From: a phage
Reading direction: 5' to 3' (one strand)
Assembly: GCA_011884725.1 (NCBI GenBank)
Contig: GCA_011884725.1_3919.1
Length of the DNA stretch: 64,000 bases
Shown in pieces: positions 12,231-46,339 of the stretch. Each line of letters opens with the position of its first letter. Position 1 is the first letter of the stretch. The notes beneath the pieces were generated by a model that saw only the letters and a list, made by a program, of their open reading frames with translations, was not told the DNA's origin and ran no database searches. A program made the position numbers and the translations under genes.

Positions 12231-13112
12231 ATGAAAACATCTATCCGTGTTACAGTTCATTCACCAACTAAAGGGACTCATGAAGAAGAGTTTAACATCG
12301 TCCAATTCCCTTCTGGTGAGATTGGTGGACACTTTTCGCCAGAGTTTGTTGATTTTACTGCTTATGCAGCATCATCCATCAGCAATGTGATTATGATTGT
12401 AAAAGGTTATGACAAGGACACATTGTTTGCTGTGGCACTTGCTAAAGAAGCAATTGATGATTTAATTCCTCATGATTATGCTTTAAAGACTGTCATCTTT
12501 TACTACTTACCAAATGCACGATATGACCGTCACATGTTTAAAGGTGACGCAGCAGCTTTAAAGGTTTTTGCTAAACAGATTAATGCAATGGGATTTGGCG
12601 CAGTCTGTGCAGTTGACCCTCACAGCTATGTACCAGATAACCTGTTTAACTGCTTCCAGAGTATTCCTCAAAAGGAAATTGCAGTCCACTATGCAAATGA
12701 CCCACTGGTTGATTACTTAGTAGCCCCAGATGCAGGTGCTGCTAAGAAGGTTGCAGAGACCGCTAAAGAGGTGGATAAACCATATATCACAATGTCTAAG
12801 GTGCGTAACCTTAAGACTGGTGAAATTACTGGTATGCGAATCCTTGATGATGTTGATTTGACAGATAAAACCGTCATGATTCTGGATGATATCTGTGATG
12901 GTGGTCGAACCTTCATAGAAGCAGCTAAACATCTTCGTGAAGCAGGTGCAAAACGTGTGGAACTCTATGTAACACACGGTATCTTCTCTAAAGATGTTGA
13001 AAACCTTCTTGACAATGGCATTGACCACATCTACACTACAAACTCTTTAGGGGAAGCTAAAGACCGTGGCTTAACACATTATGGTCAAGTTACTGTAGCA
13101 AACCTTGATTGA
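12231..13112 (+). CDS. ribose-phosphate pyrophosphokinase family protein (Prs-like; candidate ADP-ribose pyrophosphokinase Adps of NARP1)
   Basis: ATG 12231 (track start 12216 is a TTG); PRPP-binding motif MILDDICDGGRTF; adjacent to NAMPT-family gene. Confidence 0.75.
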   Translation: MKTSIRVTVHSPTKGTHEEEFNIVQFPSGEIGGHFSPEFVDFTAYAASSISNVIMIVKGYDKDTLFAVALAKEAIDDLIPHDYALKTVIFYYLPNARYDRHMFKGDAAALKVFAKQINAMGFGAVCAVDPHSYVPDNLFNCFQSIPQKEIAVHYANDPLVDYLVAPDAGAAKKVAETAKEVDKPYITMSKVRNLKTGEITGMRILDDVDLTDKTVMILDDICDGGRTFIEAAKHLREAGAKRVELYVTHGIFSKDVENLLDNGIDHIYTTNSLGEAKDRGLTHYGQVTVANLD

Positions 13113-39357: not shown

Positions 39358-40773
39358 ATGAGCGAATTATTTAAACATGCGCACCTTCATGCAGGTCGAA
39401 CTGAAAATGGTGCTGTAAACCATACTTCATCAATGTCTGCTCTTGTAGACTTTTACAAAGCTGCTGGTTCAAGCCGTAGCAATGTAGAAATCTTACCAGA
39501 CCTGTTCTACAAAGCTTTGCGTGAGGATGTTGATGTTGCAGTTCGTATTTTACTGCATATGCGAGATGTACGAGAAGGTATGGGTGAGCGTAAAGCCTTC
39601 AGAACTGTTTTACTTCAAGCGATTGAAGACAAAGTTTTAGAGCCTACGCAGGTTCTTCGCATTATGGATAAGATTGCAGAACTTGGTCGTTTTGATGACT
39701 TCAAAATCTTTGTAGGTACTCGTTTCGAGACAGATGCCTTCAAGCATTTAGAAGCAGCATTACTAGACCCTGCAACAGCAGGTTTGGCAGCTAAGTGGTT
39801 ACCACGAGTCAAACCACGTCATAAGCAGTTTGTAAAACGTTTCTGCAAGTTTGCCAACTTGAGCGAGAAAGAGTACCGCACACTGTTGTCTGCACTATCT
39901 GATACAGTTGAGCAAAAAATCTCTGCTAATGAGTTTGGTAAGATTGACTACAGTAAGATTCCTTCACTTGCTGCTGCACGCTACCAAAAACTGTTTAACC
40001 GTAAAGATGGAGAGCGATACAAAGCTTACATCGAGTCCTTATCAAAGGGTGAGGCTAAGATTAATGCTGGTGCTGTTTACCCATACGATGTGATTAAATC
40101 TGTCAAGCATGGTAATGCAGATGTTGCTAATGAGCAGTGGAAAGCACTACCAAACTGGATGGCAGAAGGTGAAAACATCTTGTGTATGTCTGATGTATCA
40201 AGTTCAATGTCTTGGGTGAATTTTGGCTCCATTACTGCTCTGGATATTGGTGTATCACTTGCCTTGTATGTAGCAGAACGCAATACAGGCTGCTTTAAGA
40301 ATGAGTTGATGGTTTATTCAACAAACCCTCACTTCATCGAACTGAGTGGTGATTTACGAAACCGTCATCGTCAGGTGATGCGACACGTTGAATATGGCTC
40401 AACTAACTTACAAGCAGCTTTTGACCGCATTCTTGAAACAGGTAAAAGAAACAACTTGACTCAGAAAGATATGCCAAGTAAGCTTATCATCTTCTCCGAT
40501 ATGGAGTTCAATCAGGTTGATGGAGCTAACGGTCGTACAAACTTTGAAGCAATTCAGAGTAAGTACAAAAAAGCTGGATATGAGATGCCACAACTGGTAT
40601 TCTGGTACTTAGCAAACCGTAATGGTACTTGCGAAGTGTCTGTTAAGGATAACGGTGTAGCAATGGTATCTGGTTTCTCTCCAGCCACTTTAAAAGCTCT
40701 GCTTGGTGGTGAGAAGTTTGACCCAATCAGCGTAATGCTCAAAGCAGTAATGATTGACCGTTATATCTGGTAA
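39358..40773 (+). CDS. vWA-domain protein with MIDAS motif
   Basis: 471 aa; C-terminal half has DxSxS (CMSDVSSSM) and a later IIFSDMEF acidic motif typical of von Willebrand A domains; helical N-terminal half. Confidence 0.55.
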   Translation: MSELFKHAHLHAGRTENGAVNHTSSMSALVDFYKAAGSSRSNVEILPDLFYKALREDVDVAVRILLHMRDVREGMGERKAFRTVLLQAIEDKVLEPTQVLRIMDKIAELGRFDDFKIFVGTRFETDAFKHLEAALLDPATAGLAAKWLPRVKPRHKQFVKRFCKFANLSEKEYRTLLSALSDTVEQKISANEFGKIDYSKIPSLAAARYQKLFNRKDGERYKAYIESLSKGEAKINAGAVYPYDVIKSVKHGNADVANEQWKALPNWMAEGENILCMSDVSSSMSWVNFGSITALDIGVSLALYVAERNTGCFKNELMVYSTNPHFIELSGDLRNRHRQVMRHVEYGSTNLQAAFDRILETGKRNNLTQKDMPSKLIIFSDMEFNQVDGANGRTNFEAIQSKYKKAGYEMPQLVFWYLANRNGTCEVSVKDNGVAMVSGFSPATLKALLGGEKFDPISVMLKAVMIDRYIW

Positions 40774-40791: not shown

Positions 40792-40820
40792 TTGACAATG
40801 TGTTTAATACCCTTTAATAT
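40792..40820 (+). promoter_or_regulatory. strong sigma70-like promoter TTGACA-17-TAATAT overlapping 9 bp inverted repeat AAGGGTATT / AATACCCTT
   Basis: Direct read, about 120 bp upstream of the first tRNA; inverted-repeat arms 40785-40793 and 40806-40814. Confidence 0.6.
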
Positions 40821-40882: not shown

Positions 40883-40917
40883 TTGACAACCACTAAAAAA
40901 TAATGTTAAAGTGGTTA
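40883..40917 (+). promoter_or_regulatory. promoter-like TTGACA with inverted repeat AACCACT / AGTGGTT; -10 weak
   Basis: Direct read; same A-rich-GT-TTGACA upstream pattern as the other promoters. Confidence 0.3.
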
Positions 40918-40938: not shown

Positions 40939-41015
40939 CTCTGTTTAGCTCAGCTTGGTAGAGCGTTCCGTTTGGGGCGGTAAGGCCGGAGGTTCAAGTC
41001 CTCCAACAGAGACCA
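40939..41015 (+). tRNA. tRNA-Pro (anticodon TGG)
   Basis: Acceptor CTCTGTT/AACAGAG, C1:G72, T-arm GGAGG-TTCAAGT-CCTCC, anticodon loop TTTGGGG, A73, encoded CCA. Confidence 0.75.
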
Positions 41016-41022
41016 AATTAAT

Positions 41023-41100
41023 GTTCCAGTAGACAAAATGGTAAAGTCACCACTCTTTCAAAGTGGATATCTGAGGGTTCAAATCCCTTCTGGAACGCCA
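41023..41100 (+). tRNA. tRNA-Glu (anticodon TTC)
   Basis: Acceptor GTTCCAG/CTGGAAC, anticodon stem CCACT/AGTGG loop CTTTCAA, T-loop TTCAAAT, G73, CCA. Confidence 0.75.
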
Positions 41101-41191
41101 GTTTTGACAGAAGACCAATTACAGCAAACTTAATCTTATTCATCTGAAGGTAAATCGGACAAAGAAGAGATTTGGTCTGGTCATTAAGAAT

Positions 41192-41268
41192 TGCGGGTAT
41201 AGAGAAAGGGCGTCTCACATGTCTCATTAGCATGGTATCGGCAGGTTCGACTCCTGCACCCGCCTCCA
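41192..41268 (+). tRNA. tRNA with CAT anticodon (Met or Ile2 type), atypical 5' region
   Basis: T-arm GCAGG-TTCGACT-CCTGC, 3' acceptor ACCCGCC, anticodon stem CATGT/GCATG loop CTCATTA; 5' acceptor has a 1:72 mismatch or an extra nt before the D-stem. Confidence 0.5.
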
Positions 41269-41352
41269 AATTTACAGAAGACCGTTTACAGCAAAATTGA
41301 ATGAAATTTTTAGCGGAAAAATTGAAAGATACGGTCTGGTAATACTAAACAT

Positions 41353-41426
41353 GGTTAGGAAGCACATAAGGTATGTGCGGTCGCCTGTTAAGCGAATGGC
41401 ACAGGGTTCGAATCCCTGACTAACCG
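41353..41426 (+). tRNA. tRNA-Asn (anticodon GTT)
   Basis: Acceptor GGTTAGG/ACTAACC, anticodon loop CTGTTAA, T-arm CAGGG-TTCGAAT-CCCTG, G73, no encoded CCA. Confidence 0.7.
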
Positions 41427-41438
41427 CAAAATTGAAAT

Positions 41439-41526
41439 GTGTCGTTATCCCGTAGATGGTAGCGGTGGGGACTGTAAATCCCTTGTCATTGAGACTCGGT
41501 AGGTTCGACTCCTACACGGCACACCA
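41439..41526 (+). tRNA. tRNA-Tyr (anticodon GTA), long variable arm
   Basis: 88 nt; acceptor GTGTCGT/ACGGCAC, anticodon loop CTGTAAA, T-arm GTAGG-TTCGACT-CCTAC, A73, CCA. Confidence 0.75.
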
Positions 41527-41531
41527 ATAAA

Positions 41532-41608
41532 GGCTATGTAGTTTAACTGGAGAAAATACTCCCCTGTCACGGGAGATGATGTGAGTTCAAGTCTCATCGT
41601 AGCCGCCA
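41532..41608 (+). tRNA. tRNA-Asp (anticodon GTC)
   Basis: Acceptor GGCTATG/CGTAGCC, anticodon stem CTCCC/GGGAG loop CTGTCAC, T-loop TTCAAGT, G73, CCA. Confidence 0.8.
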
Positions 41609-41837
41609 AATTATAATAAGTATTTCAAAATGATGTTTTGAGAGGGCTATTTAGCCCCTCCCTTAAAGAGTTCTTACGAGTATTCTTTAAAGGAGCAGAA
41701 GACCAAATACAGCAAGAATGTATGATATTTTCAAGCCAATCCAATTTTGAAAAAATTTAAAACTTGGTCTGGCTCAACAAATTTACAGAAGACCGTTTAC
41801 AGCAAAACTTAAACAATCTATTTCTCGGTAAAGAAAA

Positions 41838-41892
41838 GGCGAAGGTTCGATTCCTTCACTCGGCAGATGTCGAGTTGGTGTAATGGTAGCAC
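41838..41892 (+). pseudogene. tRNA remnant: 3'-half-like T-arm segment followed by 5'-half-like acceptor/D-arm segment, no intact cloverleaf
   Basis: GAAGG-TTCGATT-CCTTC-ACTCGGCA then GTCGAGTTGGTGTAATGGTAGCAC; no complementary acceptor partner found in correct order. Confidence 0.4.
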
Positions 41893-42065
41893 TTAAGATG
41901 ATAAACAACGGTCTGGTAATTATCTTTGTAGATAAGTTATTAAGCTTACCTGTGAGTATGCGACCACAAAGGGTGAAAGGGTAAATTCTAGATTTAAACC
42001 CAAAAAGGCACATCGCTACAGACCTTAAGCAAGTCTGGGTAGCTTATCTACAAAGATAATTTAAT

Positions 42066-42141
42066 GGAAGTGTAGCAGAATGGTGATGCGGCAGACTTTT
42101 AATCTGACAGGCGATGGGTTCGAATCCCTCCACTTCTACCA
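42066..42141 (+). tRNA. tRNA-Lys (anticodon TTT)
   Basis: Acceptor GGAAGTG/CACTTCT, anticodon loop CTTTTAA, T-loop TTCGAAT, A73, CCA; weak T-stem shared with the CTT Lys tRNA. Confidence 0.65.
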
Positions 42142-42145
42142 ATAT

Positions 42146-42222
42146 GGTTCAGTCGCAGATAAGGTAATGCAAGGGTCTCATAAGCCCTATGAATGTGGGT
42201 TCGATTCCCATCTGAACCTCCA
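42146..42222 (+). tRNA. tRNA-Met (anticodon CAT)
   Basis: Acceptor GGTTCAG/CTGAACC, anticodon stem AGGGT/GCCCT loop CTCATAA, T-arm GTGGG-TTCGATT-CCCAT, CCA. Confidence 0.75.
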
Positions 42223-42223
42223 A

Positions 42224-42299
42224 GCTGGTATAGTTAAGAAGGTTATAACACTCCCCTGATAAGGGAACATCGGTGGTTCGATTCCACCTACCAGTACCA
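42224..42299 (+). tRNA. tRNA-Ile (anticodon GAT)
   Basis: Acceptor GCTGGTA/TACCAGT, anticodon loop CTGATAA, T-arm GGTGG-TTCGATT-CCACC, A73, CCA. Confidence 0.7.
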
Positions 42300-42314
42300 A
42301 TTTCAATAAAGTTG

Positions 42315-42343
42315 TTGACATTGAGATGTGACTACTTTATAGT
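42315..42343 (+). promoter_or_regulatory. strong sigma70-like promoter TTGACA-17-TATAGT inside the tRNA cluster
   Basis: Direct read; followed by about 200 bp without ORF or tRNA before tRNA-Arg. Confidence 0.55.
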
Positions 42344-42545
42344 AACCTTAGTTTTCGTTGCGTAGCGTCTATTTTGCAAATTTAAAATAAATGCAAACGA
42401 CAATGTTTTTCTGGCAGTAGCTTGATAGGCTAAACACCAGTGAGGTCTTCCAATCCCTCATCAAAGAATTTGGCGTACTCGCCCACGGTATGATTAATAA
42501 GGTGGGCATCTTTAAGGGCTTTCTAAGAGAGTCTTTAAAGATAAT

Positions 42546-42622
42546 GCACCCTTAGTTCAATTGGATAGAGCAACGGTCTTCTAAATCGTTAGTTACAGGT
42601 TCGAATCCTGTAGGGTGTACCA
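42546..42622 (+). tRNA. tRNA-Arg (anticodon TCT)
   Basis: Acceptor GCACCCT/AGGGTGT, D-arm GTTCAATTGGATAGAGC, anticodon stem ACGGT/ATCGT loop CTTCTAA, T-loop TTCGAAT, A73, CCA. Confidence 0.8.
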
Positions 42623-42764
42623 AATAGTTAGCAGATTACTTAGACGGCCTTAGCGGGTCTTCCTGTAGGGAGGTGGTCTGTATCTCATGTTTTCCAGAAC
42701 ATGTAAATAATCTGAGAAGAAGCTTGACAGTGTTGAGATAACAGGGTAAGCTTCGAATTATAAT

Positions 42765-42847
42765 ATGGGACGATGTTAAGACTCTAAGGCATGAGCAACG
42801 GCCTCCAAAACCGTTTCAAAGGGGTTCAACTCCTCCGTCCCATGCCA
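42765..42847 (+). tRNA. tRNA-Trp (anticodon CCA) with enlarged D region
   Basis: Perfect acceptor ATGGGAC/GTCCCAT, anticodon stem ACGGC/ACCGT loop CTCCAAA, T-loop TTCAACT, G73, CCA; about 7 extra nt between acceptor and anticodon stem. Confidence 0.55.
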
Positions 42848-42860
42848 AAGTCTTATTAGG

Positions 42861-42948
42861 GGTAGGTAGCGGCTAATGGTAGCCAAACTGTCTTGAAAAC
42901 AGTTGCCACTGTAGAGATACGGTGAGGGTTCGACTCCTTTACTTACCG
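42861..42948 (+). tRNA. tRNA-Ser (anticodon TGA), long variable arm
   Basis: 88 nt; acceptor GGTAGGT/ACTTACC, anticodon stem ACTGT/ACAGT loop CTTGAAA, T-loop TTCGACT, G73. Confidence 0.7.
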
Positions 42949-43104
42949 CCTAATAAGATTTACTCCGTCCATGCTTGTTCGCATTGTCGGTTTATCCCTC
43001 GTGTATTGTCGTACACTGTCAAAGCACCTAGTAGGTGTCACGGAGAAGAGATAATATCAAGCTCTCCAAAGGTTCTAGTCACCGGATTAAACAAGACTAT
43101 GCAA

Positions 43105-43124
43105 AGACCTATTTAGGTCTTTTT
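43105..43124 (+). terminator. terminator-like hairpin AGACCT-ATTT-AGGTCT + TTTT inside tRNA cluster
   Basis: Direct read. Confidence 0.45.
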
Positions 43125-43204
43125 AGAGGGCTTCTAAGGTTATTAGTCGCTTGTTGTGGAACCTTGTTGCTTAGGTTCTTAGAAGTTCTCTAAAAAGATT
43201 TAAT

Positions 43205-43282
43205 GGGAGATTGACGGTAATTGGTAAACCTACCATCCTTAGAAGTTGGTGTTTGAGGGTTCGAATCCCTTGTCTCCTACCA
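43205..43282 (+). tRNA. tRNA with Leu-type anticodon TAG but short variable arm
   Basis: Acceptor GGGAGAT/GTCTCCT (two G-U pairs), D-loop AATTGGTAAA, anticodon loop CTTAGAA, T-arm GAGGG-TTCGAAT-CCCTT, A73, CCA. Confidence 0.5.
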
Positions 43283-43289
43283 AATTAAT

Positions 43290-43365
43290 GCAGGTGTAGC
43301 AAAATGGTTATGCGGCTGACTCTTAATCAGTAAGACGATGGGTTCAATTCCCTCCACCTGTACCA
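43290..43365 (+). tRNA. tRNA-Lys (anticodon CTT)
   Basis: Acceptor GCAGGTG/CACCTGT, anticodon stem GCTGA/TCAGT loop CTCTTAA, T-loop TTCAATT, A73, CCA. Confidence 0.65.
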
Positions 43366-43371
43366 AACATT

Positions 43372-43447
43372 GGGGATGTAGTTTACATGGTTAAAACATA
43401 AGTTTTGCAAACTTAAGTACAGGGTTCAATTCCCTGCTTCTCCACCA
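43372..43447 (+). tRNA. tRNA-Ala (anticodon TGC)
   Basis: G3:U70 pair in acceptor, anticodon stem TAAGT/ACTTA loop TTTGCAA, T-arm CAGGG-TTCAATT-CCCTG, A73, CCA. Confidence 0.7.
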
Positions 43448-43453
43448 ATTAGT

Positions 43454-43528
43454 GCATCCATAGTTTAAACGGGAAAATTACAGTCTTCCAAACTGAGGTT
43501 GAGGGTTCGATTCCCTCTGGATGCTCCA
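43454..43528 (+). tRNA. tRNA-Gly (anticodon TCC)
   Basis: Perfect acceptor GCATCCA/TGGATGC, anticodon loop CTTCCAA, T-arm GAGGG-TTCGATT-CCCTC, U73, CCA. Confidence 0.8.
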
Positions 43529-43534
43529 AACAAT

Positions 43535-43611
43535 GCTGCTTTCGTATAATTGGCTATTACACATCCCTTGTAAGGATGGAAATGCAGGTTCGAGTCCTGT
43601 GAGCAGCACCA
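43535..43611 (+). tRNA. tRNA-Thr (anticodon TGT)
   Basis: Acceptor GCTGCTT/GAGCAGC, anticodon stem CATCC/GGATG loop CTTGTAA, T-loop TTCGAGT, A73, CCA. Confidence 0.8.
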
Positions 43612-43707
43612 ATTCAGAGGTCAAGTGAAAGACCGCTTTGAGTCAACTGAAGACCGTAACAAATACCACGGAGTTGAGTTAGCGGCACAACTTCAGACCT
43701 CTTTCAT

Positions 43708-43782
43708 ACTCGCTTAGTTTATATGGTAAAACATCACCCTTACAAGATGAAGAAAAAGGTTCAAGTCCTTTAGTGAGTACCA
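43708..43782 (+). tRNA. tRNA-Val (anticodon TAC)
   Basis: Acceptor ACTCGCT/AGTGAGT, anticodon loop CTTACAA, T-arm AAAGG-TTCAAGT-CCTTT, A73, CCA. Confidence 0.65.
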
Positions 43783-43783
43783 T

Positions 43784-43861
43784 GTTCCAGTATCCCAATT
43801 GGCAGAGGATGCAAGCTCAAACCTTGTATTAGTGACGGTTCGAATCCGTCTTGGAACACCA
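43784..43861 (+). tRNA. tRNA with Leu-type anticodon CAA but short variable arm
   Basis: Acceptor GTTCCAG/TTGGAAC, D-loop AATTGGCAGAGGA, anticodon stem GCAAG/CTTGT loop CTCAAAC, T-arm GACGG-TTCGAAT-CCGTC, A73, CCA. Confidence 0.55.
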
Positions 43862-43866
43862 ATTTT

Positions 43867-43942
43867 GCAGGATTAGTTCAAATGGAAAGAGCAACAGTCT
43901 ACGAAGCTGTTAATAGGGGTTCGAATCCCTTATCCTGCGCCA
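43867..43942 (+). tRNA. tRNA-Arg (anticodon ACG)
   Basis: Perfect acceptor GCAGGAT/ATCCTGC, anticodon stem ACAGT/GCTGT loop CTACGAA, T-loop TTCGAAT, G73, CCA. Confidence 0.8.
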
Positions 43943-43959
43943 GATAAAAAGGTGATACT

Positions 43960-44202
43960 ATGCAAACATTAACAGTAGTTGAACATGAAAACTGTGAGAG
44001 TATTGAGTTTGTCAGGGTCATTGGTGTTGAACACCACATTTTCTTAAAAGTGGGATACTTATGTGACCCCGCTAGAGTAGAAAGATTTATACGTGATTGT
44101 TTTGGTGGTAGACATCTGAAGAGTGTTATTTTTGAGACAGTTTTACCAGAAGGTTTAGAAACGAATAATAACATTTACCTCCTTACGAGGATTAGACAAT
44201 GA
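43960..44202 (+). CDS. hypothetical protein (inside tRNA cluster)
   Basis: ORF track; AAAGGTGA upstream. Confidence 0.5.
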   Translation: MQTLTVVEHENCESIEFVRVIGVEHHIFLKVGYLCDPARVERFIRDCFGGRHLKSVIFETVLPEGLETNNNIYLLTRIRQ

Positions 44203-44756
44203 GATACTTAAAGTATGCTTCATGGATTTTCTTAGCTTTGTTAGAGCCATTTGCAGCAATCTTAGCAGTTATCTTAGCACCTTTTGTAGTTCCATTCTAC
44301 AGTGAGAAGAAAGGACACTTACCTTTCGGGTTCAGATGGATGGAGACATATGACAACCCAATTGATGGTGATGAAGGTCACGTTAAAAGATGGGCTAATA
44401 TTAGATGGATTGGTAAACTAGGTGTCTACATGCAAAGAGTCGGATGGCTCTGGAGAAACAAAGCTTATAACTTCTCTTACCATGTATTAGGAAGAGATGT
44501 AAGAGATGTTACTAAGTGGAAAGGTAATATCAACGTAAGTTCTAACCCTGAAGATAATCAGACTGGTTATCTCCTAATGTGGAACAGTAATGCTTGGGGA
44601 TTATTCGCTTTTATCCCATCAATTAAAGTCTTCGGTAAACAGTTTTACTGGAGAATTTATGTTGGATGGAAACTTAAAAGTGTTGTCCCAGAAGAAAGAG
44701 CATTCTCAAGGGAAAGAGTTATGTTGGCATTCTTTATTCATCCACTGAGAAAGTAA
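44199..44756 (+). CDS. hypothetical membrane protein (inside tRNA cluster)
   Basis: ORF track; N-terminal hydrophobic segment WIFLALLEPFAAILAVILAPFVVPF; Trp-rich. Confidence 0.5.
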   Translation: MRYLKYASWIFLALLEPFAAILAVILAPFVVPFYSEKKGHLPFGFRWMETYDNPIDGDEGHVKRWANIRWIGKLGVYMQRVGWLWRNKAYNFSYHVLGRDVRDVTKWKGNINVSSNPEDNQTGYLLMWNSNAWGLFAFIPSIKVFGKQFYWRIYVGWKLKSVVPEERAFSRERVMLAFFIHPLRK

Positions 44757-44764
44757 AGATTTAA

Positions 44765-44840
44765 AGGGGATTAGTTTACAAGGTTAAAACCTCGGTCTTT
44801 GAAATCGAAGAAGTTGGTTCAATTCCAACATCCCCCGCCA
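44765..44840 (+). tRNA. tRNA-Gln (anticodon TTG)
   Basis: Anticodon stem TCGGT/ATCGA loop CTTTGAA, T-arm GTTGG-TTCAATT-CCAAC, unpaired 1:72 and G73, CCA. Confidence 0.7.
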
Positions 44841-44842
44841 AT

Positions 44843-44921
44843 GCTCCATTACTCCAATTGGCAGAGAGGCCAGACTTAAAATCTGTGTTATGTATCGGTT
44901 CGAATCCGATATGGAGTACCA
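44843..44921 (+). tRNA. tRNA with Leu-type anticodon TAA but short variable arm
   Basis: Acceptor GCTCCAT/ATGGAGT, D-loop AATTGGCAGAGAG (paralogous to the CAA tRNA), anticodon loop CTTAAAA, T-arm ATCGG-TTCGAAT-CCGAT, A73, CCA. Confidence 0.55.
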
Positions 44922-44926
44922 AATTT

Positions 44927-45002
44927 AGCGGTATAGCATAACTGGCAATGCAGCAGTCTCTGAAGCTGTCCTATTAAGGTTCAAATCCTTATGCCGCTGC
45001 CA
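44927..45002 (+). tRNA. tRNA-Gln (anticodon CTG)
   Basis: Acceptor AGCGGTA/TGCCGCT, anticodon stem GCAGT/GCTGT loop CTCTGAA, T-arm TAAGG-TTCAAAT-CCTTA, G73, CCA. Confidence 0.7.
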
Positions 45003-45033
45003 CTTCTAAGGATTCTTACGAGAGTCCTTAAAT

Positions 45034-45109
45034 GTGGCCTTATCATAAATGGTAATGACCCATGCTGTGAACATGGTCTATACGGGTTCAAATCCCGTAG
45101 GTCACCCCA
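45034..45109 (+). tRNA. tRNA-His (anticodon GTG)
   Basis: Acceptor GTGGCCT/AGGTCAC, perfect anticodon stem CCATG/CATGG loop CTGTGAA, T-loop TTCAAAT, C73, CCA. Confidence 0.8.
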
Positions 45110-45114
45110 ATTTA

Positions 45115-45191
45115 TAGTCCAAGTAGCTTATATGGTTAAAGCGCGTGTCTGAAAAACATGAGAAGAGGGTTCAAATCCCACTGGACTACCA
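45115..45191 (+). tRNA. tRNA-Phe (anticodon GAA)
   Basis: Acceptor TAGTCCA/TGGACTA, anticodon stem CGTGT/ACATG loop CTGAAAA, T-loop TTCAAAT; exact 3' end ambiguous by 2 nt. Confidence 0.65.
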
Positions 45192-45207
45192 ATTTCAAAG
45201 GTGCTTA

Positions 45208-45942
45208 ATGAAAGAGATGACAGAACAAGGTAAGGAGATTTTCAATCTCTTAAAAACCGGTAAAGGGTTTTCTAACCCCCTTATTACTGGTGCAGCAGTT
45301 CTCGGTGGAACCGTAGCTGCCTCTACATCACTTGTAAGCTCTATTAGCTCTGTATCAGACCCTACAGTAAAGGATAAGCTTGTTGCTGCTGGACTTACAA
45401 CAGTTCTGCTTAACAGCTTTACCACGAGTCTGACAAGCACTACATCAACTACCAAAACACTAACAGATTACGGTCAAAAGTCCATTGATGAGTTTTCATC
45501 ACGTATGCAGGTAGCAAAAGGTTACTCTAATGTTATGGGTGCAGCAGGTGAACAAGTTGGCTGTACACCATTTAGTGGTATTATGGGTGTTGCTACAGAG
45601 TATGGTCAAAAAACTATTGATACGATTAACAGTGTACTAGATAGTGTTAATGGTGTGTTAAGTGACTTACAAGATGCTATTGACAAAGGTCTTGATACTA
45701 TTTCTGATTTAGCTGAGCAAGCTGTTAGTAAGATTAATGAAGGTATTTCAAAAATTACAGCTTATGCAGATGAAGTTGTGCAGATGATTGAAGAAGAAGC
45801 TGCTCTTATTGCAGAGTACCTTAAAACGAATATCAATGGGTTCTTAGCAGGTATCTTACCAGACTGGTTTGATGATGCTTGTAAAACTGGTGTAATTGAC
45901 ACTATTGCAACACCAGAAATGAAGAACGCATTACAGAAATAA
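45208..45942 (+). CDS. hypothetical Ser/Thr-rich protein
   Basis: Start set to ATG 45208 (track ORF start 45145 lies inside the tRNA-Phe gene); stop 45940-45942 sits 2 nt before a tRNA. Confidence 0.45.
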   Translation: MKEMTEQGKEIFNLLKTGKGFSNPLITGAAVLGGTVAASTSLVSSISSVSDPTVKDKLVAAGLTTVLLNSFTTSLTSTTSTTKTLTDYGQKSIDEFSSRMQVAKGYSNVMGAAGEQVGCTPFSGIMGVATEYGQKTIDTINSVLDSVNGVLSDLQDAIDKGLDTISDLAEQAVSKINEGISKITAYADEVVQMIEEEAALIAEYLKTNINGFLAGILPDWFDDACKTGVIDTIATPEMKNALQK

Positions 45943-45944
45943 AT

Positions 45945-46037
45945 GGAAGATTAACCCTAAAAGGTAAGGGAGCAGTTTGCTAAACTGCCAGTAGCTGAGA
46001 AATCGGTGTACCAGTTCAAGTCTGGTATCTTCCTCCA
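45945..46037 (+). tRNA. tRNA-Ser (anticodon GCT), long variable arm
   Basis: 93 nt; perfect acceptor GGAAGAT/ATCTTCC, perfect anticodon stem GCAGT/ACTGC loop TTGCTAA, T-arm ACCAG-TTCAAGT-CTGGT, CCA. Confidence 0.7.
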
Positions 46038-46041
46038 ATTT

Positions 46042-46117
46042 GAATCCGTGACAGAAACGGCTATGTGCCTGTCTGCAAAACAGGTTTATAAGGGTTCGAG
46101 TCCCTTCGGATTCTCCA
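46042..46117 (+). tRNA. tRNA-Cys (anticodon GCA)
   Basis: Perfect acceptor GAATCCG/CGGATTC, perfect anticodon stem CCTGT/ACAGG loop CTGCAAA, T-arm AAGGG-TTCGAGT-CCCTT, U73, CCA. Confidence 0.8.
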
Positions 46118-46339
46118 AGTTATTTTACTCTCTCTCAATTAAAATAATAATAATGCCCTGCTATAAGTATTCTTCCTTTCGCTACCGAAGAGTATTTTTA
46201 GACAGGGCTTTTTTACAGAGTTATACTTTATAGGAAGACTTATACAGTATGTCTCTGACGTACATTGTGGTTTCTCCTTGACGGTCTCTGTGCCGTCTTT
46301 TTTAAGGGGAAACATGATTAACTATTTGGAGAAAACATA

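Follow-up and report, generated by a model that had tools for sequence, protein, structure and literature searches.

The 64,000-nucleotide stretch of phage DNA considered here (contig GCA_011884725.1_3919.1 of the NCBI GenBank assembly GCA_011884725.1, called the window below) carries, between positions 40939 and 46117, the conserved transfer RNA (tRNA) island of a Felix O1-like (Felixounavirus) Escherichia coli myovirus. The island probably combines 26 canonical tRNA genes and one non-canonical tRNA-Trp, all in an accessory role, with additional RNAs encoded in the gaps between the genes. The cluster itself confirms textbook phage biology. Beyond it, strong comparative support points to three kinds of unannotated structured RNA within the same coordinates: the non-canonical tRNA-Trp, four modules resembling Y RNAs, and an RNA with a peptide tag that resembles the coding piece of a transfer-messenger RNA (tmRNA). 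The genes, their structures and conservation, a correlation with codon usage, and the association of the modules with a protein gene are direct observations.

Nucleotide homology and gene order both place the region among the Felixounavirus tRNA islands. The 6-kb region matches 311 phage records, 228 of them with at least 80% coverage. The best relatives are felixounaviruses with 95–97% identity over 6 kb and the same tRNA order (vB_EcoM-Ro111lw, typing phage 1, wV8), with the E. coli phages Ro111lw and TP1 at 97%. The cluster as first noted was already known, since both the cluster and the codon argument were published for Felix O1 in 2010: the genome paper reported 22 tRNAs by tRNAscan-SE, two of them "pseudo," and compared phage and host codon usage to the same end (PMC3185647). 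The RefSeq record of typing phage 1 annotates the same 26 tRNAs as found here, and records and later comparative papers give 17–26 annotated tRNAs per genome across the genus. Felix O1, wV8, typing phage 1, and other Felixounavirus or Ounavirinae phages (22–26 tRNAs annotated) have the same genes in the same order as the window, share with it the embedded hypothetical open reading frames (ORFs) and an upstream gene labeled "RNA-binding/vWFA," and show essentially no difference in the 26 tRNAs. The tRNA-Trp element, the four modules (M1–M4), and the tag RNA are all present in these relatives and are unannotated in the records examined.

An original prediction, made from the letters of the sequence, had described 27 tRNA genes on the + strand that cover all 20 amino acids. 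Run on the whole window, ARAGORN called 26 tRNA genes and nothing else, all on the + strand within 40939–46117 and with the predicted order, coordinates, and anticodons; as an object, the phage tRNA cluster had been correctly recognized. These 26 of the 27 genes have a cloverleaf and a readable anticodon of the bacterial type, and 24 of them also score above gathering with the Rfam tRNA model (RF00005). The remaining two, CAT#1 (41192–41268) and the long-arm Tyr (41439–41526), fall below that threshold and are ARAGORN calls only. The genes are listed here with their Rfam scores; all except tRNA-Trp were called by ARAGORN.

40939–41015, + strand: tRNA-Pro (TGG), 57.7 bits; C1-G72, A73, CCA encoded
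41023–41100, + strand: tRNA-Glu (TTC), 60.4 bits
41192–41268, + strand: tRNA CAT#1, atypical, below Rfam gathering
41353–41427, + strand: tRNA-Asn (GTT), 48 bits; CCA not encoded
41439–41526, + strand: tRNA-Tyr (GTA), long variable arm, below Rfam gathering
41532–41608, + strand: tRNA-Asp (GTC), 60.6 bits
42066–42141, + strand: tRNA-Lys (TTT), 54.4 bits
42146–42222, + strand: tRNA CAT#2 (Met or Ile2; G1-C72), 55.6 bits
42224–42299, + strand: tRNA-Ile (GAT), 62.3 bits
42546–42622, + strand: tRNA-Arg (TCT), 64.1 bits; cognate codon AGA enriched 7.9-fold
42765–42847, + strand: non-canonical tRNA-Trp (CCA), uncalled by programs; covariation, minimum free energy cloverleaf
42861–42950, + strand: tRNA-Ser (TGA), 33.2 bits
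43205–43282, + strand: tRNA-Leu (TAG), 40 bits
43290–43365, + strand: tRNA-Lys (CTT), 56.9 bits
43372–43447, + strand: tRNA-Ala (TGC), 62.7 bits; G3.U70
43454–43528, + strand: tRNA-Gly (TCC), 59.6 bits
43535–43611, + strand: tRNA-Thr (TGT), 54.7 bits
43708–43782, + strand: tRNA-Val (TAC), 60 bits
43784–43861, + strand: tRNA-Leu (CAA), 44 bits
43867–43942, + strand: tRNA-Arg (ACG), 59.5 bits
44765–44840, + strand: tRNA-Gln (TTG), 56.6 bits
44843–44921, + strand: tRNA-Leu (TAA), 47.5 bits
44927–45002, + strand: tRNA-Gln (CTG), 57 bits
45034–45109, + strand: tRNA-His (GTG), 53.3 bits; C73
45116–45191, + strand: tRNA-Phe (GAA), 45 bits; imperfect T stem and 7:66 pair
45945–46037, + strand: tRNA-Ser (GCT), 46.2 bits
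46042–46117, + strand: tRNA-Cys (GCA), 56.3 bits

In the structures drawn by ARAGORN, 24 of the 26 tRNAs encode their own CCA end, and the identity elements are those expected for charging in an enterobacterium: Ala has G3.U70 and A73, Pro has C1-G72 and A73, the discriminator of His is C73, and both Gln tRNAs combine G73 with a weak 1:72 pair. The earlier statement that discriminator bases mostly follow bacterial expectation is borne out in broad terms. The doubts then raised about the first CAT tRNA, Trp, and the 3' end of Phe fall on genes that are truly odd. CAT#1 has a U1.C72 mismatch over G2-C71/C3-G70 (an initiator-like acceptor), U37, and a weak anticodon stem; the T stem of Phe is imperfect, as is its 7:66 pair; and Trp is not called at all. 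The Felix O1 counterpart of CAT#1 has a Cove score of 28.9, and that of Tyr was flagged as a pseudo-tRNA by tRNAscan (PMC3185647). For the two CAT tRNAs, fMet, Met, and Ile2 all remain candidate identities. The long-arm Ser-TGA scores low with Rfam (33.2 bits) yet lies above gathering.

The 27th gene received no ARAGORN call and no Rfam match at gathering in the window; its best Rfam match is a weak one to the tRNA-Sec model (23 bits, 42767–42841). RefSeq and GenBank leave it unannotated in typing phage 1, Ro111lw, Moogle, and 40 sampled records. The gap around the element is 92–100% conserved across the genus, and in the distant Yersinia phage P778 the match is restricted to the element itself (78%). 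Its structure was assessed on 12 distinct aligned homologues, with 500 shuffles and slid-partner controls. The alignment shows 99.5% of cells paired, with changes on both sides in 8 of 20 pairs spread over all four helices; the anticodon stem, for example, changes from ACGG/CCGU to UAAG/CUUA to UAGG/CCUA. No shuffle of the 500 matched the observed covariation, the slid controls collapsed, and minimum free energy folding of the element returned the same cloverleaf.

The geometry of this cloverleaf is not canonical. The acceptor stem has 8 bp (AUGGGACG/CGUCCCAU) and the T stem 4 bp, so that the coaxial stack is kept at 12 bp, and the D region consists of a 9-nt connector, a 3-bp D stem, and an 8-nt loop containing GG. 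A canonical D stem pairing G11-U13 with A32-C34 was ruled out, given that the change of A32 to U in Moogle-type phages is compensated at position 19 and not at 13. The anticodon stem has 5 bp under a loop C/U-U-C-C-A-A-A (CUCCAAA in the window), and U33-CCA-A37 is invariant among the homologues. Erwinia phage phiEa104 has a canonical, ARAGORN-called tRNA-Trp with exactly the same anticodon arm. The ends carry A1-U72, the discriminator G73, and an encoded CCA; the anticodon CCA, G73, and A1-U72 are identity elements for Trp under the established rules for the E. coli tryptophanyl-tRNA synthetase. From comparison of the homologues, the element is a real and selected tRNA-Trp-derived RNA with a remodeled D region and a candidate for charging and use. 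The predicted count of 27 genes holds, with a conserved, covarying cloverleaf at 42765–42847 that is non-canonical and called by no program. Coverage of all 20 amino acids hinges on the Trp element, because it is non-canonical, and stands only if that element works. In wV8-type phages, the match to the gap containing tRNA-Trp stops upstream of the element, where the region is truncated.

The second kind of RNA is found near the start of the island, downstream of a gene for a Ro60-like protein. The gene and the four modules are as follows.

39358–40773, + strand: gene for a Ro60-like protein, predicted TROVE-like ring plus von Willebrand factor A (vWA) domain, DUF2828 and DUF7788 (Pfam; AlphaFold 2 [AF2]; Foldseek)
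41106–41182, + strand: module M1, stem-closed, without tRNA-like domain; motif pair CAGAAGACCAA...TTGGTCTGG; 39.6 bits with covariance model R1; closing-stem covariation
41273–41341, + strand: module M2; motif pair CAGAAGACCGT...ACGGTCTGG; R1 46.3 bits
41694–41774, + strand: module M3; motif pair CAGAAGACCAA...TTGGTCTGG; outer stem AGC/GCT covaries
41784–41918, + strand: module M4, with a putative permuted tRNA-like domain; structural scanner; 98% paired in alignment A4; R1 166.9 bits

Repeat analysis and a motif scan revealed four exact copies each of CAGAAGACC and GGTCTGG in strict alternation from 41108 to 41916; a single further exact GGTCTGG occurs on the + strand elsewhere in the 64 kb. 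The hairpin closed by each motif pair has a bipartite helix, whose 5' strand reads NNC-[AGA]-AGACCNN and whose 3' strand reads NNGGUCU-[G]-GNN. In a set of 61 distinct modules taken from relatives, the unconstrained N positions pair in 60–61 while switching among AU, UA, GC, and GU, and the AGA/G internal loop is unchanged in all 61. The interiors of M1–M3 are simple and have no tRNA-like domain. M4 contains, in order, a UACAGCAA box, a small V hairpin, a perfect T-arm (41841–41857), a 7-bp acceptor-like hairpin (41858–41875) with arms resembling the 3' and 5' acceptor strands, and a D-arm; the acceptor-like hairpin exists in three unrelated sequence versions, all of which pair. By this arrangement of its parts, the interior of M4 reads as a circularly permuted tRNA-like domain.

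The modules begin about 330 nt downstream of the Ro60-like gene on the same strand, and this association recurs well beyond the genus. Eighty viral contigs (1.05 Mb) with homologues of the protein at 39–99% identity were searched (handles beginning with L refer to viral contigs). A scanner for a T-arm followed immediately by a 7-bp hairpin gave 24 matches, all on the strand of the protein. Covariance model R1, built from 13 M4 sequences and used with a cut-off of E<1, gave 44 matches in some 30 unrelated contigs, each spanning the full model and all 44 on the strand of the protein. Most of these matches abut the homologous gene upstream or downstream, often in tandem pairs or triplets, and they do not overlap called tRNAs. 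M4-like RNAs also lie beside the protein where ARAGORN calls no tRNA in about 15 kb, as in L079. In the 11.5 kb around the tRNA cluster of Erwinia phage phiEa104, there is neither a Ro60-like gene nor a module, and the canonical tRNA-Trp is kept. The 20 best R1 matches have 93% of cells paired compared with 59% in shuffles, 22 of 27 pairs changed on both sides, and a covariation score of 0.73 compared with 0.20 for shuffles and about 0.1 for slid partners; the alignment was fitted to the model and is thereby biased toward the structure, yet the difference is wide. Many M4-like members have N-CCA right after the 3' acceptor strand, recalling the end processing of Mycobacterium smegmatis YrlA, which is cut by RNase P and then given CCA (PMC4201824).

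The upstream gene lies directly before the tRNA island. Its product matches only DUF2828 and DUF7788 in Pfam and is not a member of Pfam TROVE, NCBIfam gives it no name, and a sequence search of the Protein Data Bank (PDB), with a single sequence and with a profile, found no significant match; in GenBank records of relatives, the gene is labeled "RNA-binding protein" or "vWFA protein." An AF2 model made from 39 homologues has a predicted local distance difference test score of 87. In a Foldseek search of the PDB, each of the top 12 matches is a Ro60/TROVE protein aligned along its full length (E 8e-9 to 2e-6, template modeling score up to 0.66), among them Xenopus Ro60 with RNA and a Ro60 of a Thermus phage. 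The predicted structure has the HEAT-repeat ring and C-terminal vWA fold of Ro60/TROVE proteins, and the MIDAS residues of the DxSxS motif (D279/S281/S283) are invariant. A Ro60/TROVE plus vWA fold can be predicted with confidence. According to the PhageMaP preprint, gp130 of Bas63 (a Felixounavirus) is a Ro60-like protein at the same position that counters the "ppl" defense, and its authors speculate that some of the tRNAs annotated downstream are Y RNAs, none of which was identified (PMC11482910). Going by position and description, the gene in the window would be the orthologue of gp130.

The Ro60-like protein has homologues by the thousand in phages, jumbo phages and KVP40-like Vibrio phages among them. 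Of the 80 sampled contigs, about 40% have same-strand tRNA genes within about 7 kb of the Ro60-like gene, several of them directly downstream, and tmRNAs called by ARAGORN (tags ANTNFALAA, ...GELAVA, and ANDNNAYGAYALAA) are found a few kilobases from it in five contigs (L028, L031, L032, L044, L077). This suggests a recurrent neighborhood of Ro60-like protein, tRNAs, and tmRNA, as in Bxz1-type mycobacteriophages. The Bxz1/ET08-type mycobacteriophages share with the window many tRNAs, a Ro60-type protein, a nearby same-strand tRNA-like Y RNA, and a tmRNA-type element (PMC4201824, PMC4131195). They differ in that the protein here is DUF2828/DUF7788 and not Pfam TROVE, the Y-RNA-like RNA is not recognized by the Rfam YrlA model, the tmRNA-like RNA lacks a tRNA-like domain, and the modules are interleaved with the tRNAs.

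The closest structural parallel to the modules is with bacterial YrlA/YrlB and Rsr, as in the Salmonella rsr-yrlBA-rtcBA operon. Chen et al. described the YrlA layout as V, T, acceptor-like, and D stem-loops within a terminal stem (PMC4201824). M4 has this order of stem-loops between paired 5' and 3' ends and adjoins a Ro60-type gene on the same strand. In both systems, there are several tandem RNAs of which only one has the full tRNA-like domain. In contrast, the helix motif of the modules is NNC-AGA-AGACC / GGUCU-G-GNN and not the GNCGAAN0-1G of YrlA; the motif expected in the Ro60-binding strand is absent, and what is invariant is CAGAAGACC / GGTCTGG. A GGCGAAG at 41838 was considered as the YrlA motif and rejected, as it is GGAGAAG in close relatives. 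The M4-type acceptor-like stem has 7 bp and is often followed by N-CCA. The survey of Chen et al. in 2014 was limited to genomes with an annotated TROVE protein and listed 22 phages (PMC4201824). In layout, the modules are likely YrlA/YrlB-like and candidate partners of the Ro60-like protein. It is somewhat to be favored that the protein and M1–M4 act together as a ribonucleoprotein (RNP), with M4 as a permuted tRNA mimic whose N-CCA may be exposed by RNase P, and that this RNP underlies antidefense activity of the gp130 type.

The third kind of RNA lies between tRNA-Ile and tRNA-Arg(UCU).

42315–42540, + strand: tmRNA coding-piece-like RNA without tRNA-like domain (the tag RNA); promoter match 11/12, conserved tag, covarying helices

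The sequence TTGACA-N17-TATAGT (42315–42343) is the best sigma70 match of the region (11/12) and, as a consensus match, would drive the tag RNA. After this promoter come a conserved GTTTTCG box, the stretch AAAAUAAAU, and the tag frame at 42393–42428, which reads GCA AAC GAC AAU GUU UUU CUG GCA GUA GCU UGA UAG and encodes ANDNVFLAVA plus two stops. The tag of E. coli tmRNA is ANDENYALAA. The gap holding the tag RNA shows 99–100% identity across the genus and 80% to Erwinia phages; the RNA is conserved in Felixounavirus, Mooglevirus, and Erwinia Kolesnikvirus, and in three contigs (L101, L141, L226) it stands alone, with no tRNA-like gene in 9–13 kb. Pattern searches of viral contigs gave nine variants of the tag that fit ANDxx[F/Y/I]L[A/M]VA followed by two stops; the second query imposed part of this pattern, and the first, which was free in the 3' half, still gave LAVA or LMVA with the double stop. 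Changes among the variants are mostly synonymous (AAC/AAU, GAC/GAU, CUG/CUA, GUA/G/U/C, GCU/G/C, UGA/UAA), and tag length and the double stop are conserved across genera and in contigs without tRNAs. The stops sit in the loop of a covarying helix (CUGG/CCAG to CUGA/UCAG), and two downstream pseudoknot-like helices covary as well. An ATG-initiated frame over the tag (MQTTMFFWQ) was rejected; its peptide and length are not conserved in relatives, whereas those of the tag frame are.

With its GCA resume codon, hydrophobic degron-like end, stops, and coding constraint, the tag frame has the features of a tmRNA reading frame. The curated models do not reach their thresholds (29.2 bits for tmRNA_permuted, with gathering at 47, and 15.7 bits for tmRNA), and a tRNA-like domain with G3.U70 acceptor, T-arm, and 3' CCA is absent. 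ARAGORN called no tmRNA in the window, also in a tmRNA-only run; the 64-kb window holds no orphan T-arm with NCCA; and the consensus fold of the tag RNA has no acceptor stem. M4 and the Trp element were considered as an acceptor piece in trans and rejected, their duplex energies with the tag RNA being no better than those of shuffles. The permuted tmRNA that ARAGORN reports in Citrobacter phage Moogle is chimeric, with its 5' domain inside tRNA-Lys and a 3' domain that is the T-arm of M4.

Clear homologues with the missing part exist elsewhere. The same tag is found in jumbo-phage contigs as part of bona fide two-piece tmRNAs, composed of a coding piece that starts with GGGCCUG and an acceptor piece of the Ala type (G3.U70, ACCA); by homology, the Felixounavirus RNA starts past the GGGCCUG acceptor strand. 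Like the two-piece tmRNAs of alpha-proteobacteria and of these contigs (L207, L208, L209, L233), the tag RNA has the resume context AAAUAAAU-GCA-AAY-GAY, a 10-residue tag ending in L[AM]VA, the double stop in a helix loop, and the downstream pseudoknot-like helices. Unlike them, it lacks the 5' acceptor strand (GGGCCUG) and the acceptor piece (T-arm, G3.U70-ACCA), has its own promoter, and stands alone in some phages. The two-piece tmRNAs lie in contigs of 240–355 kb (L207 547–941, L208 689–1268, L209 1816–2214, L233 7077–7475) and carry the tags ANDSQFLMVA or ANDEQFLMVA with a G3.U70 acceptor piece; in L206 this coding piece is also present, without an ARAGORN tmRNA call. Immediately upstream of the tag-RNA promoter of phiEa104 (L005 5200–5260) there is an orphan T-arm with AAUCACUC-G-CCA after it, and in L136 (10062–10147) the tag RNA is immediately followed by an odd 86-nt tRNA-like gene that ARAGORN calls Phe-AAA. 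Each may be a remnant or a partner acceptor domain; both are without G3.U70.

The tag RNA may be a split tmRNA with its acceptor part elsewhere, a decoy for trans-translation factors, or something other than these. The proposal that it works as a tmRNA coding module although it lacks a tRNA-like domain, using an acceptor in trans or acting as a decoy for the host trans-translation machinery, is tentative and on balance unlikely; this arrangement has not been described for tmRNA. A survey of tmRNA found phage ssrA only in Bxz1-like mycobacteriophages, in Bacillus phage G, and, as the tRNA-like domain only, in DS6A (PMC4131195). A full-text search of the literature found no report of a tmRNA-like element in felixounaviruses. 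It would be quite improbable for the two new RNA systems to form a coordinated phage toolkit in which the Ro60-like RNP with its modules and a functional tag RNA both hold.

The accessory role of the tRNAs is approached through codon usage, a comparison that the original prediction had proposed as a check on its own claim of codon-usage adaptation. The codons of 65 non-overlapping ORFs of the window (47 kb) were set against an E. coli K-12 codon table. Codons that are Watson-Crick cognates of the 27 anticodons are enriched, with a mean log2 phage/host ratio of +0.40 compared with −0.63 for the others (one-sided Mann-Whitney p=0.018), and the largest ratios are those of AGA (7.9-fold), ACA (3.3-fold), AAG (3.1-fold), UCA (2.5-fold), CUA (2.2-fold), and GUA (2.1-fold). 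Codon-usage adaptation is upheld, in agreement with the 2010 paper, and is not new. A U34 isoacceptor is present in every four-codon box, and the set decodes 77% of phage codons under standard wobble, or 95% if U34 reads whole boxes.

From sequence comparison, which underlies every functional statement made here on the unannotated RNAs, we infer the following scheme of transcription, processing, charging, and physiological role. The island would lie between sigma70-type promoters and a terminator, and host RNA polymerase would make polycistronic precursors from which host RNase P and 3'-end nucleases would free the tRNAs for charging by host synthetases. The set would be near-minimal for decoding, with one U34 isoacceptor per four-codon box, and extra tRNAs would serve codons that the A+T-rich phage overuses relative to E. 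coli (AGA, AAG, ACA, UCA, CUA, GUA, CCA, UUA). Its most likely job would be accessory, a supply of tRNAs matched to phage codon demand, and as a spare pool it could sustain late translation when host tRNAs are depleted or cut. The gaps would add the four Y-RNA-like modules, with the Ro60-like protein upstream as their likely partner, and the promoter-driven tag RNA. The T4 and T5 tRNA clusters are also same-strand, co-transcribed, and accessory in laboratory hosts, and the T4 region holds small stable RNAs as well. These are likewise clustered phage tRNAs with embedded non-tRNA small RNAs, though with no sequence relationship to the island in the window. No Ro60-like partner is known for the T4 small RNAs.

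Several points weigh against this picture. The codon correlation is modest (p=0.018) and depends on the host codon table used. GGU, the commonest Gly codon of the phage, has no phage tRNA, which is a misfit to a pure codon-demand model. CAT#1, Tyr, and tRNA-Trp are non-canonical and may function poorly. On the side of the gap RNAs, the tag RNA is without a tRNA-like domain, the Rfam YrlA model (RF02553) gave no match to M4 at E≤10 in a 156-nt region, and it gave none at gathering in 9 related loci; since there is no Rfam match and the YrlA motif is not conserved, the modules are not filed as YrlA members. Finally, transposon-style knockouts in Bas63 found its tRNAs mostly non-essential on four laboratory strains, and the authors class them as likely conditionally useful "toolbox" genes (PMC11482910). 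The benefit of the tRNAs is conditional to judge from this result.

A serious rival, credible though somewhat short of even, holds that the island serves mainly in counter-defense, with phage tRNAs that replace host tRNAs cut or depleted by anticodon nucleases or by retron- and PARIS-type effectors, or that themselves resist such cutting, and with codon fit as secondary. One tRNA per codon box looks like a back-up set rather than a supply for rare codons only. Phage tRNAs reportedly evade tRNA-targeting defenses (van den Berg 2023, Azam 2024). The island also lies beside a Ro60-like gene, and the counterpart of that gene in Bas63 counters a defense (PMC11482910), and most Felixounavirus species are unrestricted by the tRNA-cutting retron Eco2, although the paper gives no reason for the absent restriction (PMC12916289). 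The codon enrichment is nevertheless real, and counter-defense and codon matching are compatible rather than mutually exclusive. A spare or counter-defense role is at least as likely as strong autonomy from the host.

Two further rivals concern the gap RNAs, and each is given little credence. The first follows the PhageMaP speculation that some annotated tRNAs are themselves the Y RNAs of the Ro60-like protein, which would remove the modules as partners. Y RNAs do mimic tRNAs (PMC4201824), the atypical CAT#1 sits between M1 and M2, and the Trp element is non-canonical. Against this, the cloverleaves, anticodons, and identity elements of the 26 genes are normal; the permuted T/acceptor/D layout typical of YrlA is found in M4 and not in the tRNAs; and M4-like RNAs accompany the protein in L079, where ARAGORN finds no tRNA in about 15 kb. 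The second takes the gap elements for functionless debris, meaning decayed tRNAs, tmRNA fragments, or processing hairpins. Phage tRNA arrays do gather pseudo-tRNAs (PMC3185647), and neither the tag RNA nor M1–M3 has a tRNA-like domain. Yet the gaps are conserved as much as the tRNAs or more, at 99–100% in the genus and 80% to Erwinia phages for the tag-RNA gap. Helices are maintained by compensatory changes, the tag frame shows mostly synonymous changes with length and double stop kept across genera, and the tag RNA would be driven from the best promoter match in the region.

The least credible reading is that of the original prediction, in which the complete 20-amino-acid set makes phage translation strongly autonomous from the host pool of tRNAs. 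In its favor, every amino acid is represented if the non-canonical Trp works, and with U34 reading whole boxes up to about 95% of codons could be decoded. Against it, GGU and GGC (5% of codons), CGG, and probably AUA, which is readable only if one CAT tRNA is of the Ile2 type, have no phage decoder, the island holds no phage synthetase or modification enzyme, the Bas63 tRNAs are mostly dispensable (PMC11482910), and close relatives lose or interrupt single tRNAs without apparent harm (17–26 annotated; Trp truncated in wV8-type phages). The accessory island with its gap RNAs is the reading retained here. Host aminoacyl-tRNA synthetases and processing and modification enzymes are still required under it.

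The remaining features of the island and its flanks are listed below.

40792–40820 and 40883–40912, + strand: two sigma70-like promoters before the first tRNA (consensus scan, 10/12 each; consensus matches only)
43960–44756, + strand: two small ORFs inside the island, of 80 aa and 185 aa (DUF7338) (ORF list; Pfam; hypothetical proteins in TP1)
45208–45942, + strand: DUF7217 ORF inside the island, about 245–265 aa depending on start codon (ORF list; Pfam 3e-88; annotated in TP1)
46280–46297, + strand: intrinsic-terminator-like hairpin and T run past the last tRNA (consensus scan)

The three ORFs embedded in the island (DUF7338, DUF7217, and the 80-aa ORF) are conserved, and four gaps of 240–460 nt are without a credible ORF. 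Some relatives have extra ORFs between tRNA genes (e.g., L002 4611–5024), several annotated as HNH endonucleases, and the island looks like an insertion hotspot for homing endonucleases. Among the unrelated phage contigs used for comparison, L025 has a group I intron (12696–12922; Rfam 71.5 bits). Conservation within the genus is high in the ORF-free stretches 42951–43204, 41919–42065, and 42623–42760. These include a long hairpin at about 43109–43209, which draws only spurious miRNA-like matches from Rfam, and a promoter-like TTGACA at 42724. The gap between tRNA-Thr and tRNA-Val holds a hairpin (43640–43680; UCAACU-GAAGACCGU...ACGG-AGUUGA) that is 96–98% conserved in relatives and contains part of the module motif (CUGAAGACCGU) but no GGUCUGG arm.

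For the known island, the analysis calls for two minor amendments: public annotations lack a conserved non-canonical tRNA-Trp, and the tRNA set gives no full decoding autonomy. The gaps offer more. From them come coordinates and a covariance model for RNAs that are candidate partners of a Ro60-like phage protein of a type reported to counter the ppl defense, and because these are now given, the speculation in the PhageMaP work that Y RNAs lie among the tRNAs becomes directly testable. The tag RNA is a tmRNA-like RNA of a form that was not found described in the literature. If functional, its presence in several phage genera would mean a new phage route into ribosome rescue or proteolytic tagging.

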